From the NCBI GenBank assembly GCA_045656005.1, contig JAZOQG010000032.1, forward strand, positions 1,438 to 65,437: 64,000 bases of DNA, given 5' to 3'. The stretch comes from Clostridia bacterium (GTDB taxonomy: Bacteria > Bacillota > Clostridia > UMGS1883 > UMGS1540). Below the pieces are notes generated by a model, which saw only the letters and a list, made by a program, of their open reading frames with translations, searched no databases and was not told the origin of the DNA. Positions 9,434 to 64,000 of the stretch are shown here, one piece after another. The position numbers were made by a program, and so were the translations under genes. Position 1 is the first letter of the stretch, and the number at the start of each line of letters is the position of its first letter.

Positions 9434-9589
9434 ACACAACACCTCAATATACATTATAACAGAATTTATGAATTTAAGCAACAAAAAATATATATTAATA
9501 TGTACTTTTTGTTAAGAAGAATTTTTTTACAAAATTTACTTGCAAATTTTATGAAATTAAGTTATAATGTAGTGGTATATTGTGAGGTG

Positions 9590-10618
9590 ATGAATTTGGT
9601 AATTGCTGTTGATGCAATGGGCGGAGATAATGCACCGAGAGAAATTGTGCTCGGAGCGGTTAAGGCGTCGGAGATTATCGAGGGCAAAATATTGCTCGTT
9701 GGAAAAGAAGAAGTTATTTCCGAAATTCTTACAAATGAAAAATACGATAAAAGTAAAATCGAAATCATAAATGCCACAGAGGTTATTGAAAATGACGAAA
9801 AACCAACTGCGGCGATACGTACCAAAAAAGATTCATCAATGGTGCGAGCATTTAATCTTTTGGCAAACGGAGATGCAGATGCTTTGGTGTCTGCAGGAAG
9901 TACGGGAGCACTTTTAACGGGTGCTGTTCACTTTTTAAAGAGAATTAAAGGCATTTCAAGACCTGCCCTGGTGCCGACACTTCCTTCTGCAAATGATAAT
10001 TTTATTATCGCTGACAGCGGTGCAAACGCAGTTTGCAAACCACAAAATCTTTTGCAGTTTGCTTTAATGGGTGCTTCTTATGCCAAAAATGTTTTGGGAA
10101 AAGAAAATCCGAGAGTGGGACTACTTAATATCGGTGCCGAAAGCGGAAAAGGAACTGACCTTGTAAAAGAAGCATACGATTTATTAAAAGACAGCGGTCT
10201 TAACTTCGTCGGCAATGTTGAGGCGAGAGACCCTGTAATGGGCGAGTGCGATGTTGTTGTGTGTGACGGATTTTCTGGAAATGTACTCCTCAAAGCTACT
10301 GAGGGCACGGGACTTGTGCTTTTTAAAAATGTTAAAGAAGTCTTTATGGGCAGTATAGTGACAAAAATTGCGGCACTTATGCTCAAAAAAGGGCTTTATA
10401 AACTTAAAAAGAAAATGGATTACAAAGAATATGGCGGTGCACCGTTTCTCGGAGTTACAAAGTGCGTTATAAAGGCTCACGGAACAAGTGATGCCAAAAC
10501 TATAATGCACACAATAAAGCAAGCGGAAAATTTTGCAAAAAGCAATTTTTTAAGCGAACTTTGCGAAACTATGGAGAAATATAGCGCCGAAGAAGGAGGT
10601 GCAGAAGGTGGTATTTGA
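9590..10618 (+). CDS. plsX: Phosphate acyltransferase PlsX
   Basis: The [17 protein letters not shown]-terminus is canonical for PlsX. A GAGGTG RBS lies immediately upstream of the ATG at 9590, and the listed 9500 start is an upstream extension. Confidence 0.9.
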
Positions 10619-47319: not shown

Positions 47320-48951
47320 TTAACCTGCTTTTTCTATATTCAGTTCGCTATTAAACTCTACTGTTCCAACAAACTTATAATAAATATTTATATCCTGATA
47401 AGTTTCACCTTGGTATTCGTACTTTTCGCCGACTTCAATTCTGTCTATAAGCTCATGGAGAATCTCGTATGTGAGTTCTTTAATTCCTATGTACTTTTCA
47501 ATTAAGTTTACAAAGTCTATGGCATTATCCTTTGACTTATGATATTCATTAAGCTCGCTTTCAATTCTCGATGCCTCGGCTTTTAATTCGGCCTGTTCTT
47601 CTTCATATCCTGCGAGGAGTGATGCCATTCTCTCGCTTGATAAATTTCCTAAAACTGAATTTTCGTATGTCTTTGTTATAAGTATTTCAAGCTCGCCGAT
47701 TCTTTTGTTTGCTTTTGCAAGCTTTCGTTGATTGTCTTTAGTTTCTGCCATAATCTTTTGCTCGTTGCATTTAAGTGCCGCTTTGTATAGTGCATCTCTG
47801 TCGGTTTCTAATAACACAGTCTTTGTGTAGATGTCTGCAAGGACTACACCATATAACTCGTCATACCTTATATAATGAGATGGGCAGTATTGCTTACCAT
47901 TCAGGTTATATGTATTGCACACATAAGACTTGGTTGCATTTGAGAACACCAAGGCTTTTTTACAATCCATACATTTTATTATCTTAGCAAAGATTTGTGT
48001 TTCACCTGTTTTGGTTTCTCTTGACCGACTTTCAAGCAATTTTTGTACTTCATCAAAGGTCTGCTTATCAATTATCGGTTCATGGGTATTTTCTACCACA
48101 ATCCATTCATCCTTGGGGACATCCCTGAACTTCTTTGACTTAAAAGGCTTTTCTTTTCTGTGATTTACCATATTGCCTATGTAAACTTCGTTTATAAGCA
48201 TATCTCCCACAGTATCATCACACCAATAACATTCGTCATCGTGTGCGGTCATAGCAGAGTAATGATTCATTCCCTGAGCTTTTGCATAGGCGGCAGGAGT
48301 AGGGATTTTTTCTTCGTGAAGAATTTTCGTTATTTTCCTTTTTCCATAGCCTTGCTTAGCCAAGTCGAAGATATGTCTTACAATACGTGCAACCTCTTCA
48401 TCGATTATAAGATGATGCTTGTCCTTCGGGTCCTTTTTGTATCCGTATGGCGCTTTAGCTCCAAGGAACCAACCCGATTCCGATTTGGTTTTGTATGCCG
48501 ACCTTGTCTTTTCGGATATATCTCTTGGATACATTGCATTATACATATTCTTAAAGGTTGCAATTTGTTGATAACCATTTAAGTATGTATCAACGCCATC
48601 ATCTATTGCAATAAAACGAATGCCTCTTGCTATGAAAATGTCCTCGTAATATAGATTTGCCTGAACATCATTTCTGCCAAGCCTTGATAAATCTTTTACG
48701 ATTATGCAGTTGGCATTTCCTTCTTCAACATCTCGCATCATTGCCTGAAATTCAGGCCTTTCAAAGAATACTCCTGATTCACCGTCATCTACATATTCCT
48801 TGCGGATTATAATGTTATTTTTGTTGGCGAAACTCGATGTTTTCATTCTTTGGGTTTCTATGCTTATGCTCTCTGCATTTGCTGAACGCTTATCTTCTTT
48901 GGATAACCTTAGATATAAATTTGCTATCCATAACGTTTCTCTTTTTGCCAT
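47320..48951 (-). CDS. Large serine recombinase (resolvase/invertase catalytic domain + recombinase domain + zinc ribbon + coiled coil)
   Basis: N-terminal YLRLSKEDK with the catalytic Ser region, DDGVDT motifs, and CxxC...CxxxC zinc ribbon (CMDCKK...CNTYNLNGKQYC); 543 aa. Confidence 0.85.
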   Translation of the reverse strand: MAKRETLWIANLYLRLSKEDKRSANAESISIETQRMKTSSFANKNNIIIRKEYVDDGESGVFFERPEFQAMMRDVEEGNANCIIVKDLSRLGRNDVQANLYYEDIFIARGIRFIAIDDGVDTYLNGYQQIATFKNMYNAMYPRDISEKTRSAYKTKSESGWFLGAKAPYGYKKDPKDKHHLIIDEEVARIVRHIFDLAKQGYGKRKITKILHEEKIPTPAAYAKAQGMNHYSAMTAHDDECYWCDDTVGDMLINEVYIGNMVNHRKEKPFKSKKFRDVPKDEWIVVENTHEPIIDKQTFDEVQKLLESRSRETKTGETQIFAKIIKCMDCKKALVFSNATKSYVCNTYNLNGKQYCPSHYIRYDELYGVVLADIYTKTVLLETDRDALYKAALKCNEQKIMAETKDNQRKLAKANKRIGELEILITKTYENSVLGNLSSERMASLLAGYEEEQAELKAEASRIESELNEYHKSKDNAIDFVNLIEKYIGIKELTYEILHELIDRIEVGEKYEYQGETYQDINIYYKFVGTVEFNSELNIEKAG

Positions 48952-49983: not shown

Positions 49984-51111
49984 TTACATTCCTCCCATCT
50001 TGATACCTAAAGCTTGCTTTTTCTGTGCCAGCTTTACATATTCTTTTTTGTCCATACTATATGGTCGCCTGCGAGATTCCTGTCTGTTCTCTTCCTGACA
50101 TCGACCTTCAAATACCTTGCAGATATTGAAGACTAATTCGCCGATGACATTATCTATATTATTACTTTCTACGCTTTTCTCGCTTGCCGCAGAAATGATT
50201 TGATTTCGTATCTTATTAAATTCTCTGTTATCGTATAGCTCTGGGAAATCAATTTCATCTTCCTGATAGTAACCCATAATTCTACCTTGTATGTTACACC
50301 ATTCTTTGTAGAATGCTGCAACGTTCTTATCCTCTGACAGCTTTTTATATATGCTGTTTACAATCTCTTTCTGTTCCTTTGACAGATATGAATACACTTT
50401 TTTACCTTTATAGGTTTGCATTTCATCTGCCAATTTTTGAAAGAGAGTGTTGATTTTGGTGTTTGGTTTTACACTGAAATCTTTTTTCAATTCCCGTATT
50501 CTATCCTTGGATTTCTCAACTAACTTTTCGCGCATTTGAGTCTTTTCATCATACAGATGAAATAGCTCGTCTCTACATATTTCTCTTACCATACAGGATT
50601 TCATTTGCTCAATCCCATTTTTAGTTAAAAAACCACCACCCGAAGCAGAATACACTAGCATGTGTATGTGTGGGTGGTGGTCTTTATTATGGAATGCTGC
50701 ATACCATCTTAAGTCATCAAGTGGTATCTTATATATTCTAGCTATGTCTGCCTGTTTGGATTGAATGAGCGTTTGCCACGCCCTTGCATTATCATATCCA
50801 AACCTTGTTGCATCTTCTCTTGTAAGAGACAACATTGGCAACCAAACATTACATTTAAGCTCTTTTAATTCTTCTAAAACTTCGTTCAGATTCAGATCCG
50901 TTTTATTGGAAAACAAACCATGAGTTCCGAACTTTTCTACCTTTGGCCTTGTTGCAATATAGTTGGCATTGATGACTACTTTGTTATTAATAGACTTGTC
51001 CACACCTATACGTCTTGCTATGTACCCGGCTTTACCTGCCGCTTTACCGCCTTTAACATACGGGCTTTTGAAAACTACCGCGACTGACATAAATTTTCCT
51101 CCTTTCTTCAA
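49984..51111 (-). CDS. Relaxase/mobilization nuclease
   Basis: 3-His metal-binding motif HNKDHHPHIHMLVYS in the N-terminal half, characteristic of MOB relaxases; 375 aa. Confidence 0.65.
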   Translation of the reverse strand: MKKGGKFMSVAVVFKSPYVKGGKAAGKAGYIARRIGVDKSINNKVVINANYIATRPKVEKFGTHGLFSNKTDLNLNEVLEELKELKCNVWLPMLSLTREDATRFGYDNARAWQTLIQSKQADIARIYKIPLDDLRWYAAFHNKDHHPHIHMLVYSASGGGFLTKNGIEQMKSCMVREICRDELFHLYDEKTQMREKLVEKSKDRIRELKKDFSVKPNTKINTLFQKLADEMQTYKGKKVYSYLSKEQKEIVNSIYKKLSEDKNVAAFYKEWCNIQGRIMGYYQEDEIDFPELYDNREFNKIRNQIISAASEKSVESNNIDNVIGELVFNICKVFEGRCQEENRQESRRRPYSMDKKEYVKLAQKKQALGIKMGGM

Positions 51112-60927: not shown

Positions 60928-61079
60928 ATTCATAGGACAGACCATTCTTCATATAGAGATATTTTAACTTCTGTTATCAAGGATTTATAGACCGATGATT
61001 ATTTTCAACTTCATCGGTCTTGAAAATATGCTATTTTTTATTTATTATGTAGAAATTAAGAATAAGTTTATACAAATCA

Positions 61080-61108
61080 TTGACATAATTCGATTTTTTT
61101 AGTATAAT
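61080..61108 (+). promoter_or_regulatory. Perfect consensus sigma70 promoter TTGACA-17-TATAAT inside the IR-flanked segment, currently facing away from the SPFH operon
   Basis: TTGACA at 61080-61085, a 17-nt spacer, and TATAAT at 61103-61108. Confidence 0.6.
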
Positions 61109-61133: not shown

Positions 61134-61157
61134 ACCACATAATCACGATTATGTGGT
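61134..61157. repeat. IR-R: 24-bp repeat (accacataatc-AC-gattatgtggt) followed by a T-run; abuts the stop of the tyrosine recombinase gene
   Basis: Inverted copy of IR-L. It is followed by gtttttatttt and can act as a terminator hairpin in the current orientation. Confidence 0.6.
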
Positions 61158-61167
61158 GTTTTTATTT

Positions 61168-62007
61168 TCAGCAGATTAATAGTCCAAGTCTTTGCAACTG
61201 CTTTCTGTGAATTTCGCCTGTTTCCATTGTGTATATTCGTGTAGTGTTCACACTTGAGTGACCAAGAATGTCGGCAAGCCTTACAACATCTTTCTGGAGA
61301 GAGTAGTAGGTGCGTGCAAACAGATGGCGAAGATTATGTGGGAATACTTTATCTTTTGACACTCCGGCAATTTCACAAAGCTTTTTCATATCAGACCATA
61401 TATTGCTTCTATCAAGTGGTTTTCCGTTTTTGCTTACAAATACAGAGCCACTTTTTATATTGTTTTCTCTTATATAGTCTTTTAGCATTTTGCAAAGCTG
61501 CTTAGGTAAGATAACAATTCTCATTTTACCTTTACAGTTAATTGTTGCCTGTCCAGACTTGACAGCAGAAACCGTTATAGCTTTAAGTTCTGATACACGG
61601 ATACCTGTTGCACATATAGTTTGCATAAGGTAATAAAGTCTTTGGTTTTTCTTTTGCTTTGCAGCAACTAACAATCTTTCATATTCAGCTTTTGTCAGTT
61701 CCTTATCCTTACTTGAAAATATCTGCCTTTGGATTTTAAGAGCCTTCACCTTCAGGTCATACCACTCGTTATATGCAAAGAAACTATTTAGTGATGATAG
61801 TATAGAATTTACACTTGCCGGAGCATATTTTTCTACTATATCTTTCTTGTATTCAAGCACAACACTTTTACTCAATTCTGTTTCTTTGCACCATTCCATG
61901 AATACTGCTATGTCACGGACATACTTATCCAAGGTAGAGGGGGACTTTTCCTCATCAATTAAATGGCCTTTAAACTTTTTTATTAGTTCGTTTGTGATTT
62001 TTCTCAT
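61168..62007 (-). CDS. Tyrosine site-specific recombinase (phage integrase family; candidate invertase for the adjacent switch)
   Basis: C-terminal catalytic residues in HNLRHLFART and LGHSSVNTTRIYT (R-H-R-Y); an N-terminal SAM-like core-binding domain; 279 aa. Confidence 0.85.
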   Translation of the reverse strand: MRKITNELIKKFKGHLIDEEKSPSTLDKYVRDIAVFMEWCKETELSKSVVLEYKKDIVEKYAPASVNSILSSLNSFFAYNEWYDLKVKALKIQRQIFSSKDKELTKAEYERLLVAAKQKKNQRLYYLMQTICATGIRVSELKAITVSAVKSGQATINCKGKMRIVILPKQLCKMLKDYIRENNIKSGSVFVSKNGKPLDRSNIWSDMKKLCEIAGVSKDKVFPHNLRHLFARTYYSLQKDVVRLADILGHSSVNTTRIYTMETGEIHRKQLQRLGLLIC

Positions 62008-62223
62008 TTTGAATCAACTCCTTTGGTTTTATTTTACCACCAACGATAAAATATATAAGAGTTGTCAATGATTTGCGTTTTACCTCCTTATTCAACCACA
62101 AACAATACCATAAAGAACACAAAAAGTCTATTCAGCAAACTACATTAAATTAATCTAATACATTGATAAATTTGATAAAATATGATATAATATTGCAAAG
62201 CAATCAAAAAGGAGGCACATGCC

Positions 62224-63081
62224 ATGTATTCGAAATTTGATTTTAAATTAACTAATTCTTTTTATAATACAGAACTTAATAAATATTTGGAAGTGGGGAA
62301 AAAAGAATACGATGATTTTAATGCAAAAGTAAAACGCAGTTTAAAAAACTTTATTTATGATAATGGAAAAATTGACGGGACCTCTTTAAAAGAACATTGG
62401 TTTAATATAGTCGATGCCGATGTTTTTATATCTCATTCACATCAAGATATTGGTAAGGTAAAAGCTTTTGCGGGATGGCTAAAGTACAATTTCAATCTTA
62501 CATGTTTTATTGATTCTTGTGTTTGGGGATATTGTGATGAGCTTTTAAAACAAATTGATGATGCAAAATGTAAGAATTCAAATTCTTCTACATATAGCTA
62601 CGAATTAAGAAATTATACCACTAGTCATGTTCATATGATGTTATCAATAGCATTATCGGAGATGATTGACAATTCGGAATGTGTTATCTTTTTCAATACT
62701 CCTGAATCAGTATCCTTATCCGAAGATTTGGAATCATTAAAAAAATCTAAGCATTCTATAACATTATCACCATGGATTTATCATGAATTGGCTATGACCA
62801 GTATGATTAGACCTAGTCAGTTGAAAAGACAAGTAACTTTGCTTGAACATTCGGAAAAAAGAACACTGTTTGCATCTGAACAAAATTCGATTCATATTTC
62901 TCACGATGTTGATAAATATATTAATGAAATGATCGAATTAACAGGTGAAGATCTAAATAAATGGAAACAAACGTATAGAATACTTACACACCAAATTGAT
63001 GGGTACGACATTCCGTTTATACGCGGATACGAGGATATTCATGCTTTAGATGTTTTGTATTCCCTCAAGGGAATTAATTAA
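62224..63081 (+). CDS. TIR-domain protein (ThsB-like)
   Basis: ADVFISHSHQD...AFAGWLKY...FIDSCVW matches the TIR betaA-alphaA-betaB signature. Later, SECVIFFNTPESVSLS...SPWIYHEL matches the TIR S..W...E motif. 285 aa with GGAGG RBS. Confidence 0.6.
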   Translation: MYSKFDFKLTNSFYNTELNKYLEVGKKEYDDFNAKVKRSLKNFIYDNGKIDGTSLKEHWFNIVDADVFISHSHQDIGKVKAFAGWLKYNFNLTCFIDSCVWGYCDELLKQIDDAKCKNSNSSTYSYELRNYTTSHVHMMLSIALSEMIDNSECVIFFNTPESVSLSEDLESLKKSKHSITLSPWIYHELAMTSMIRPSQLKRQVTLLEHSEKRTLFASEQNSIHISHDVDKYINEMIELTGEDLNKWKQTYRILTHQIDGYDIPFIRGYEDIHALDVLYSLKGIN

Positions 63082-63128
63082 AAAAGCAAGCAGCTCTTTA
63101 AACAAAAGGGTTGCTTGCTTAATTTTGG

Positions 63129-63587
63129 TTATATCCAATTTGTATAGGTGTTAATAAACATAAAAATAATCGTAAATAAAATGGGTAAGTATAGTGGCAT
63201 TAATGTTTTAGTAAACATTACTCTAACTACTGAAGGAGCTTTTTTCTTCTTACCGTCATTGTCAGTTAACCACATTTCAGACTCATATGGATTCAAGTCA
63301 TAGCAATGATTGTCATTTGTCAAACGATTTTTTATTATCCATTCATATTTCCAGCGATAAAGTTTCTCCGTTTTTAGAAAAAAAGCATCTAAATACCAAA
63401 AACAAAAACATATTAATGCGGAAATAATACATAATATTTTTATATTGAAAGTTTCCGGTAACAAAGCAAAGCCAACTGCTATCAAAGAGATAAGCCATCC
63501 TTTAACCAAGAAAGAATTATTAGCCATCCTGCTTATGCATGATTGAATAAGCTCGATTTCCTTTTCCAAAACATTTTGATTGTTCAT
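63129..63587 (-). CDS. Small three-TM membrane protein (candidate effector partner of the upstream TIR gene)
   Basis: 152 aa with two adjacent TM helices near the N-terminus, a short soluble segment and a C-terminal TM helix. It is co-oriented with the TIR-like gene and 45 nt downstream of it. Confidence 0.5.
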   Translation of the reverse strand: MNNQNVLEKEIELIQSCISRMANNSFLVKGWLISLIAVGFALLPETFNIKILCIISALICFCFWYLDAFFLKTEKLYRWKYEWIIKNRLTNDNHCYDLNPYESEMWLTDNDGKKKKAPSVVRVMFTKTLMPLYLPILFTIIFMFINTYTNWI

Positions 63588-63631
63588 AATGACACCTTCC
63601 TTAATAAAATTTTAAAATGGTTATTTTTATT

Positions 63632-64000
63632 CTATTGTAAGCTTTCGTATCTGTCTATAATAAGATTGACAAGCTCATCAATAGAATATTCCGTAGCGTC
63701 TATGTATCCATCTATTGTGTCGAATATGCCTTCAGCAGAGCCTGGTCCGCATTTAATGAGCATGACTCTTTCGGCGCTATCTTTGTTATTTATTAATTGA
63801 CGAATGGCCCTCCATTCTACGCCACACCATGTTTTAGTGTTATAATCCGCACAATTAAACACTACAACAAGGTCAGACTCTTTAGAATACAGTGTCTGCA
63901 AATGCGTATCTAAATTAGGTCGTGCAAATTCTGAAGAATGAAATTTATCATATAATATTGCTTTTTTACCATGTATAGAAGACAATTCTTTTGCAATCTT
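63632..64000 (-). CDS. TIR-like domain protein, N-terminus beyond window end
   Basis: SDLVVVFNCADYNTKTWCGVEWRAI resembles the C-terminal half of bacterial TIR (TIR_2-like) domains. The ORF is open to position 64000. Confidence 0.5.
   Translation of the reverse strand, partial: KIAKELSSIHGKKAILYDKFHSSEFARPNLDTHLQTLYSKESDLVVVFNCADYNTKTWCGVEWRAIRQLINNKDSAERVMLIKCGPGSAEGIFDTIDGYIDATEYSIDELVNLIIDRYESLQ

Follow-up and report, generated by a model that had tools for sequence, protein, structure and literature searches.

A probable type V Thoeris system, thsB and thsF, on a mobile defence island of a Clostridia-type genome

What does a small membrane protein do between two TIR genes, and which of the two genes is its partner? 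The question is raised by the last positions (62224-64000) of a 64,000-nucleotide (nt) stretch of Clostridia bacterium DNA (NCBI GenBank assembly GCA_045656005.1, contig JAZOQG010000032.1, positions 1,438 to 65,437; the whole stretch is called the window below). Three genes lie there: the gene of a 285-amino-acid (aa) TIR protein (gene A, thsB), the gene of a 152-aa membrane protein (gene B, thsF) and a TIR gene that runs over the window edge (gene C). According to the open reading frame (ORF) listing and the sequence, A and B are convergent with a gap of 47 nt, and C lies upstream of B on the same strand with 44 nt between them. A first-pass annotation had put the three ORFs where the ORF listing confirms them to be; C and B are indeed the close same-strand pair that it described, with a spacing of 44 nt and not 45. 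It had also taken the edge TIR gene and the membrane-protein gene for the pair, and had considered that the module might be undescribed. Neither of these two points holds: the conserved partner is the convergent 285-aa TIR protein, the edge TIR gene being missing from the closest related loci, and the membrane protein belongs to the PADLOC family PDC-M50A, part of a system that was named and tested in December 2025.

We propose that A and B are the thsB and thsF genes of an anti-phage system of the Thoeris type V, carried by a mobile defence island in a Clostridia-type genome of low GC content. We give this reading a probability of about 0.85. Each protein is homologous over its full length to one of the two proteins of a system that was tested with phage. 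The pair would add an example to a defence system described only recently and would not found a new kind.

Homology of the convergent pair to a verified type V system

In December 2025 Thoeris was widened to types I-XI (Yirmiya et al., bioRxiv 10.64898/2025.12.03.692087). Type V is composed of ThsB and ThsF. The latter is described as a "DUF2270" protein that crosses the membrane with three helices, and its model is a homo-oligomeric ring in which positively charged pockets lie between the protomers. In the type V system of Bacillus thuringiensis DAR 81934 (Bt below) ThsB yields 3' cyclic ADP-ribose (3'cADPR) upon infection, added 3'cADPR is toxic to cells that carry the system, and defence is lowered by the Tad1 sponge. 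This ThsB stands in Table S1 of the preprint as type V, "Defense: Yes", and a ThsB-ThsF pair homologous to the one of the window gave B. subtilis protection from phage (bioRxiv 10.64898/2025.12.03.692087).

The Table S1 sequence of this Bt ThsB is matched at 100% identity by the protein P0391. At its locus (L032) P0391 is followed 14 nt downstream by a 141-aa gene (L032 4773-5198), which corresponds to the consecutive IMG gene number given as effector in Table S2. These two proteins are the references for the comparisons below.

Protein A carries the motifs DVFISHSHQD and SPWIYHE, the TIR signature already seen in the first-pass annotation. With the Pfam TIR_2 model it scores 17 bits, below the cut-off of 28, and with the PADLOC ThsB model PDLC00430 it matches over its full length (1.7e-70). 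Bt ThsB matches the same model (2.8e-82). A is 40% identical to Bt ThsB (E 4e-66); in a multiple alignment the identity is 43-44%, with 43% for Bt ThsB, which aligns along the whole length. Glu188 of A, in SPWIYHE (codon 62785-62787), is invariant in both alignments; it stands where the ThsBs listed in the literature table have their catalytic Glu, at the end of W-x-x-x-E. A has a TIR fold and keeps the conserved Glu at the catalytic position. An exact look-up of A gave no match. In the part of Table S1 available, the ThsB cluster 2734579397, which holds A-like sequences, occurs 59 times, and every non-header row displayed reads "DUF2270 - Type V".

Protein B is 32% identical to the Bt 141-aa protein over 144 aa by BLASTP (E 5e-21), and hhalign relates the two with a probability of 99.5% (E 4e-23). 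B matches four of the four PADLOC PDC-M50A models (best PDLC04686, 1.2e-32), and so does the Bt protein (1.8e-48). The Kyte-Doolittle hydropathy of B has peaks at about residues 25-43, 51-69 and 128-146, i.e. two N-terminal and one C-terminal hydrophobic helices. An AlphaFold2 (AF2) model of the monomer (pLDDT 86) has helices at 3-41, 49-87 and 130-149, and the first two are long, reaching well past the hydrophobic stretches; the two methods agree with the arrangement of transmembrane (TM) helices given in the first-pass annotation. The loop 71-128 contains 12 K/R, and by the positive-inside rule applied to this loop a topology with the N-terminus in, the C-terminus out and the conserved loop in the cytoplasm is suggested.

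The invariant residues of B are R20, N24, S25, F26, K29, G30, W64, D67, E74, Y77, R78, W79, K80, Y81, W83, R88, P100, W106 and K127. Among them R20, K29, R78, K80, R88 and K127, which belong to the extensions of helices 1 and 2 and to the 71-128 loop, are candidate ligand contacts. Their invariance is compatible with pockets between protomers in the predicted ring oligomer.

Pfam and NCBIfam give no meaningful family for B, and hmmscan at E up to 10 detected neither SLATT nor PF10028 (DUF2270) in B, in 21 aligned relatives or in further distant relatives. The precomputed Pfam field is likewise empty for the proteins of the B family, the Bt 141-aa protein included. The latter has a weak, sub-threshold, full-length match to PF24838, "Octameric membrane protein family (8xMP)" (E 0.012). 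The PF10028 label of the preprint probably comes from a more sensitive method or from another Pfam version. Since the verified effector itself has no PF10028 match, the PF10028 test does not separate B from ThsF, and since the label is not reproduced by hmmscan it is unusable as an operational criterion; the practical detectors of ThsF are the PADLOC PDC-M50A models or the preprint's own profile hidden Markov models (HMMs). With a word-indexed search the B family has 700 matches, all named "hypothetical", and with an exhaustive profile search 3,539 cluster representatives at E up to 1e-3.

The locus of the window and that of Bt resemble each other in an effector with three membrane helices, in having no SIR2, SLOG or Macro partner, and in their position in a defence island; at the Bt locus the neighbours are an OLD-family ATPase/TOPRIM gene and a UvrD-type helicase gene. 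Disparities nevertheless appear. Bt ThsB has 252 aa against 285 aa here, with a longer C-terminal tail in A, and B has 10-14 extra residues in the cytoplasmic loop. The genes are convergent here, an additional TIR_2 gene lies 5' of thsF, the host is of Clostridia type, and the system is known here from its sequence.

Gene neighbourhoods of the membrane-protein family

In 12 distinct arrangements from genomes or metagenomes, and on 5 plasmids, relatives of B always have a ThsB-type TIR gene as neighbour, with varying order and orientation. A scan of the genome collection with the family alignment gave 18 loci. Every B homologue found in Bacillota, Bacteroidota and Cloacimonadota loci (L002, L004-L008, which are one arrangement, L009-L017, and the plasmid loci L026 and L028-L031) adjoins a ThsB-type TIR gene. 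The pair is met in three arrangements: with ThsB first, with ThsF first, and with the two genes convergent. The convergent one is that of the window, L002 and L004-L008; the two genes are co-directional in L009-L016, L020, L026, L029, L031 and L032.

In the closest relatives, L002 (B 84% identical) and L004-L008 (73%; a single arrangement, of which L004-L006 and L008 are copies, L007 being a shorter contig), B is convergent with a 285-aa homologue of A. The gene 5' of B is different in each: a nucleotidyltransferase gene of an unrelated cluster in L002, and the gene of a 763-aa TIR-STAND NTPase in L004. Farther away, an A-like ThsB precedes B in L010, L012, L014, L016 and L020 and follows it in L009. 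For L011, L013 and L015 the neighbour is a ThsB of about 200 aa from another family (PDLC00422, about 1e-58), and L009 and L012 have an additional PDLC00428 ThsB. The plasmids with an A-like ThsB beside a B homologue are from Clostridium botulinum (p6CSt), Terribacillus, Psychrobacter (5-kb), Klebsiella and Ligilactobacillus; the hmmsearch E-values are 1e-23 to 5e-11, and the Klebsiella gene is shortened by IS3. Because members of the two families adjoin in numerous genomes and plasmids that are not related to one another, and do so in changing order and orientation, the conserved unit is a ThsB-type TIR protein plus the membrane protein, i.e. the convergent A/B pair in the window.

In L017 (7953-9738) the ThsF homologue is convergent with an E2 gene (Cap2-like, PADLOC E2 1.5e-41) and a PDC-M50B/ThsB TIR gene, a layout that matches the Cap2/Cap3-containing Thoeris operons mentioned in the preprint (bioRxiv 10.64898/2025.12.03.692087). 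In L002, just past thsB (9537-9929), there is a fragment of a CAP12/PCTIR-type TIR gene (PADLOC PDC-S35, 7e-66) that keeps the C-terminal 130 aa only. It is followed by RHS/YD-repeat toxin genes, making this another defence or conflict island of different gene content.

Distant ThsF-like proteins (35-42% identity) occur in genomes of the Beggiatoa/Thiomargarita/Thioploca type (L018 3768-6080 and L019 7914-10141, also L021 and L022). In these four loci the gene is followed by that of a GspG-like pseudopilin. Next after the pseudopilin, L018 and L019 have a protein of about 400 aa with near-identical N-termini; that of L018 matches a nucleoside 2-deoxyribosyltransferase-like domain (PF15891) with 41.6 bits, and NUDIX weakly. 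A ThsF-type effector could be paired here with an enzyme that is related to TIR without being one, or the conserved neighbourhood may simply have nothing to do with it.

We compared the pair with other known systems. In PADLOC-DB v2.0.0 the candidate system PDC-M50 couples PDC-M50A, to which both B and the verified Bt ThsF belong, with PDC-M50B. The PDC-M50B model PDLC04688 matches neither TIR protein of the window, A being of the other ThsB family PDLC00430, and the PDC-M50 pair is therefore incomplete here. The same model matches the TIR proteins of L017 and L030; as PDC-M50B is itself a ThsB-like TIR protein, PDC-M50 is a subset of the TIR plus ThsF architecture. A literature search for "PDC-M50" returned no paper.

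For type I Thoeris, a SIR2/SLOG ThsA was sought in the scanned proteins of 47.3-64 kb and none was found. SIR2, SLOG and Macro domains gave no match in A, B, C and the 10 largest proteins of 47.3-60.9 kb, and the genes recorded up to 8 kb from the closest relatives (L002 and L004) include none with a ThsA-type domain. Type II Thoeris (ThsB plus a TM-Macro effector, with a His-ADPR signal) shares with the pair a TIR-made signal acting on a membrane-spanning effector that kills or arrests the cell, but B has no Macro match and with 152 aa is too small, the ThsB family differs, and so does the signal as judged by homology. Type VII Thoeris, the SLATT effectors of CBASS and the small TM effectors of CBASS and Pycsar are also small membrane proteins, activated by nucleotide messengers and predicted to oligomerise; however no SLATT match was found in B or at least 30 relatives at E up to 10. 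CD-NTase or cyclase domains were absent from A, B, C, the tyrosine recombinase and ten proteins of 47.3-60.9 kb.

These comparisons bear on most of what the first-pass annotation had asserted. That no SIR2, SLOG or Macro ThsA is visible is borne out for the proteins scanned, and so is the statement that the 152-aa protein is too small for a type II ThsA. Its idea of a Thoeris-like module in which a NAD-derived signal acts on a tiny multi-TM effector is supported by the homology to the phage-tested type V system. It had also named findings that would speak against such a module. A canonical ThsA nearby was one, and the closest related loci have none on record. Another was that the 152-aa protein should belong to an unrelated housekeeping family, and its family is tied to TIR genes instead. 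The third was the loss of the catalytic Glu from both TIR proteins; it is invariant in both TIR families.

The signal and the role of the edge TIR gene

By analogy with the published type V system, a phage infection cue would activate ThsB (A), which would then turn NAD+ into a cyclic ADP-ribose isomer, probably 3'cADPR. The signal would bind the positively charged pockets between the protomers of the ring-shaped ThsF oligomer, on its cytoplasmic side. The ring would open or disrupt the membrane, and the infected cell would be halted before the release of phage progeny.

Several observations weigh against the assignment of A and B to type V, or against parts of it. The tested effector is taken to be the 141-aa gene from its adjacency, the consecutive IMG numbers and the description in the paper, not from a published sequence, and hmmscan for PF10028 at E up to 10 gives no match for this Bt protein itself. 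A Foldseek search of the B model against the PDB returned nothing significant and no solved structure alike. In the published drawings of type V systems the two genes form an operon and point the same way, whereas A and B converge. Some Gammaproteobacteria have distant B-like proteins beside which no TIR gene lies. Two further observations concern the chemistry (bioRxiv 10.64898/2025.12.03.692087): a second type V system, that of Bacillus sp. 1NLA3E, did not respond to added 3'cADPR with toxicity, and a type IX system has an A-like ThsB (44% identity to A) that made 3'cADPR without activation of the effector. The identity of the signal is for these last two reasons the weakest step of the mechanism.

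The same architecture could therefore work with another chemistry: the signal may be another isomer of cADPR or an unknown NAD derivative, or ThsF may need a second input. Besides the behaviour of the two systems just described, A is only 40% identical to Bt ThsB, and B has an insertion in the 100-120 loop relative to Bt ThsF. But the two assayed ThsBs closest to A, those of Bt type V and of B. cereus VD021 type IX, both gave 3'cADPR on infection. We consider this variant unlikely, though serious enough to be kept in mind. It leaves the pairing of A with B in place.

The second question is whether gene C takes part. Within the window C scores 20.6 bits with TIR_2, whose cut-off is 28. An exact look-up of B gave one contig of 2,987 bp (L001), near-identical to the window and ending inside gene C; with its help C is extended to 161 aa and clears the cut-off with 30.2 bits. 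Metagenome contigs were also scanned with 35-mers for the sequence past 64000, and no match appeared. At full length C probably has about 250-260 aa, including an N-terminal extension that we expect to be a domain of about 100 aa. The motifs FxxAxSFxGE and WCGxEW are invariant in its family; the Glu of WCG-x-EW (codon 63815-63817 in C) does not vary among 16 sequences. Among full-length proteins, the closest to C are P0121 (61% identity) and P0122, of 259-260 aa, with an extra domain that is N-terminal to the TIR domain in one and C-terminal in the other; the genes of both stand alone on mobile elements and have no ThsF in their vicinity. By its sequence C is a genuine TIR_2 protein with the invariant Glu, from a family whose members are mostly stand-alone or fused to a STAND NTPase.

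Could C be a non-canonical second ThsB, co-transcribed with thsF, so that A and C both signal and the phage range is widened? Such a three-gene, two-sensor system finds arguments in the common strand and the 44 nt between C and thsF, in the invariant Glu that C retains, and in the frequency of loci with several ThsBs around one effector, such as the two with an extra PDLC00428 ThsB described above. In L030 a PDC-M50B-type TIR gene and an A-like TIR gene flank the ThsF homologue, and in the available part of Table S1 the IMG genes 2515616423 and 2515616425 flank an effector. ThsF also adjoins TIR-STAND genes in L004 and L061. Finally, L002 7895-8000, 5' of thsF, aligns with the 3' end of C (window 63588-63700; IIDRYESLQ* vs IEDKYESLN*) and is a degenerate remnant of it. 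Therefore C was present in the common ancestor and was later lost or replaced in L002, which would link it ancestrally to the module.

Other evidence goes in the opposite direction. No PADLOC ThsB model matches C or its closest full-length relatives, and no C-like motif occurs in the examined part of the ThsB table of the preprint (bioRxiv 10.64898/2025.12.03.692087). Those relatives stand alone, as said. A ThsF-like ORF was found near a C-like TIR in 1 of 60 metagenomic loci (L061). The order there is a canonical ThsB of 193 aa, a ThsF-like gene, and then the gene of an 806-aa TIR-NB-ARC-TPR protein, a type usually regarded as a NAD-depleting effector. It is the N-terminal TIR domain of this protein, 42% identical to C, that is the C-like one. 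The closest relatives (L002 and L004-L008) have lost C and kept the 285-aa A gene with B; C is thus outside the conserved unit. Taken with the points in its favour, we regard a two-sensor system as rather unlikely, somewhat more so than the variant with another signal.

Most likely C is a TIR defence gene in its own right that stands alone in the island; a role as second signal producer for the same ThsF is less likely. C resembles the stand-alone and STAND-fused TIR_2 proteins through the identities given above to P0121 and to the NB-ARC/TPR protein, and differs from them in its place 44 nt 5' of a ThsF gene, rare in that family (1 of 60 loci). For the same reason C-like TIR proteins were rejected as regular partners of ThsF, and the idea that the upstream TIR-STAND protein of L004 is of the same TIR family as C was rejected as well (BLASTP E 0.46).

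As an observation apart, ThsF stands directly beside a large TIR-STAND/NB-ARC NTPase, in addition to its own ThsB, in two unrelated loci (L004 5674-7965 and L061 2983-5403). With gene C, this makes three cases of an extra non-ThsB TIR next to ThsF. That C is an alternative signal generator wired to ThsF, drawn from a TIR_2 family usually regarded as NAD-depleting effectors, seems to us a doubtful, speculative idea. If it were true, the sensors of type V Thoeris could also be drawn from TIR families that are not recognised as ThsB, and the adjacency of ThsF and TIR-STAND genes in L004 and L061 would reflect cross-talk between Avs-like TIR proteins and a Thoeris effector.

Two readings that remove A or B from the system fare worse. 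In the first, C and B would be the real operon and A an unrelated orphan ThsB. The common strand and close spacing of C and B would fit, as would the convergent orientation of A and its own strong promoter-like site. This is very improbable because B homologues have A-like ThsBs beside them in at least 12 independent loci, among them co-directional operons with short gaps or overlaps, because C-like TIR proteins are almost never found there, and because the verified system is made of an A homologue and a B homologue. In the second, B would be an ordinary membrane protein without a defence function, beside TIR genes by the coincidence of a gene-dense island; its distant homologues in Beggiatoaceae-type Gammaproteobacteria do stand beside pseudopilin or housekeeping genes, and the family lacks a Pfam assignment, but the adjacency to ThsB recurs across phyla and small plasmids while gene order changes, and the homologous pair shielded B. 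subtilis from phage, so that we hold it to be extremely improbable. A type V Thoeris system made of A and B is the reading that we retain.

Layout of the locus, its island and the meaning of the assignment

The features of the locus and of the stretch upstream are collected in Table 1. The site 5' of thsB is, from its sequence, a putative promoter of that gene. The one 5' of thsF is weaker and overlaps the 3' end and the stop codon of gene C, yet the A.TAGAA core of its -10 hexamer is invariant in 4 aligned upstream regions of related loci, and thsF may have its promoter there. Alternatively thsF could be co-transcribed with gene C. The hairpin between the convergent genes would be a likely bidirectional terminator, but this is suggestive only: the terminator scan of the region found 1 such site against 0.9 expected by chance.

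Table 1. Coordinates of the features of the defence island and of the Thoeris locus (positions in the window)
Feature	Position	Strand	Description
Large serine recombinase	47320-48951		Resolvase + Recombinase + Zn ribbon + DUF4368
MobL-family relaxase	49984-51111		
Hachiman HamA	52252-53058		268 aa; PF08878 1.3e-10; overlaps helicase start
Hachiman DEAD/ResIII helicase (HamB-like, DEAD-box)	53052-56171		1,039 aa
Block of membrane/unknown proteins	56931-60908	-	137 aa; 281 aa (DUF6591); 210 aa; 224 aa; between Hachiman and Thoeris
SPFH (Band_7_1) protein	59571-60908	-	445 aa; heads the block; four C-terminal double zinc ribbons
Tyrosine recombinase	61168-62007		
Promoter-like site 5' of thsB	62163..62191	+	TTGATA, 17 nt spacer, TATAAT, TG extension; 11/12 consensus matches
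Ribosome-binding site of thsB	about 62211-62216	+	AGGAGG (sequence)
thsB (gene A)	62224-63081	+	285 aa; ThsB-type TIR protein, proposed signal-producing sensor
Hairpin in thsB-thsF gap	63084..63120	.	16-pair stem, loop of 5, T-rich tail, GC-containing (terminator scan)
thsF (gene B)	63129-63587	-	152 aa; three-TM-helix effector by homology; "DUF2270" in the literature, PADLOC PDC-M50A
Promoter-like site 5' of thsF	63629..63657	-	TAGACA, 17 nt spacer, TAGAAT; 10/12 matches
Gene C	63632 to beyond 64000	-	C-terminal TIR_2 domain; open at window edge

The GC content of the module is 30.8%, against 37% for the whole window, and that of the 47-64 kb stretch is 33.8%, against 38.2% for the rest of the window. 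The serine recombinase and the MobL relaxase suggest that 47-64 kb is an integrative mobilisable element. With a Hachiman system 6 kb upstream, the module sits in a mobile defence island. Megablast against plasmid and phage collections gave no match.

Two repeats were observed around the tyrosine recombinase. A palindromic sequence of 28 nt (ACCACATAATC.CGATTATGTGGT) is present in two copies, 60900-60927 and 61134-61161, which are 96% complementary to each other and flank a 206-bp AT-rich segment between the start of the SPFH/zinc-ribbon gene and the 3' end of the tyrosine recombinase gene. One possibility is a promoter segment that inverts (the "phase switch"); another is that the two copies are no more than hairpin terminators. 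Perfect inverted repeats of 13 nt (61073-61085 and 62063-62075) bracket the tyrosine recombinase gene. The earlier annotation placed the module directly beside the recombinase and the phase switch; its position is correct, and a link between the recombinase or the repeats and the Thoeris module was sought, with nothing found to demonstrate one.

For annotation the assignment has a direct use. The effector has no Pfam family, the TIR match of the sensor is sub-threshold, and the PADLOC PDC-M50 pair is incomplete at the locus; two genes that standard annotation leaves "hypothetical" would gain a name and a testable mechanism. Two points are useful for the annotation of Thoeris in general: the PADLOC candidate PDC-M50A is tied to an experimentally verified ThsF, and the "DUF2270" label is irreproducible with the Pfam HMM. 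The ThsF family is a large one, as its thousands of cluster representatives indicate, and the locus would add to it a Clostridia-type example with convergent genes and an extra TIR gene.

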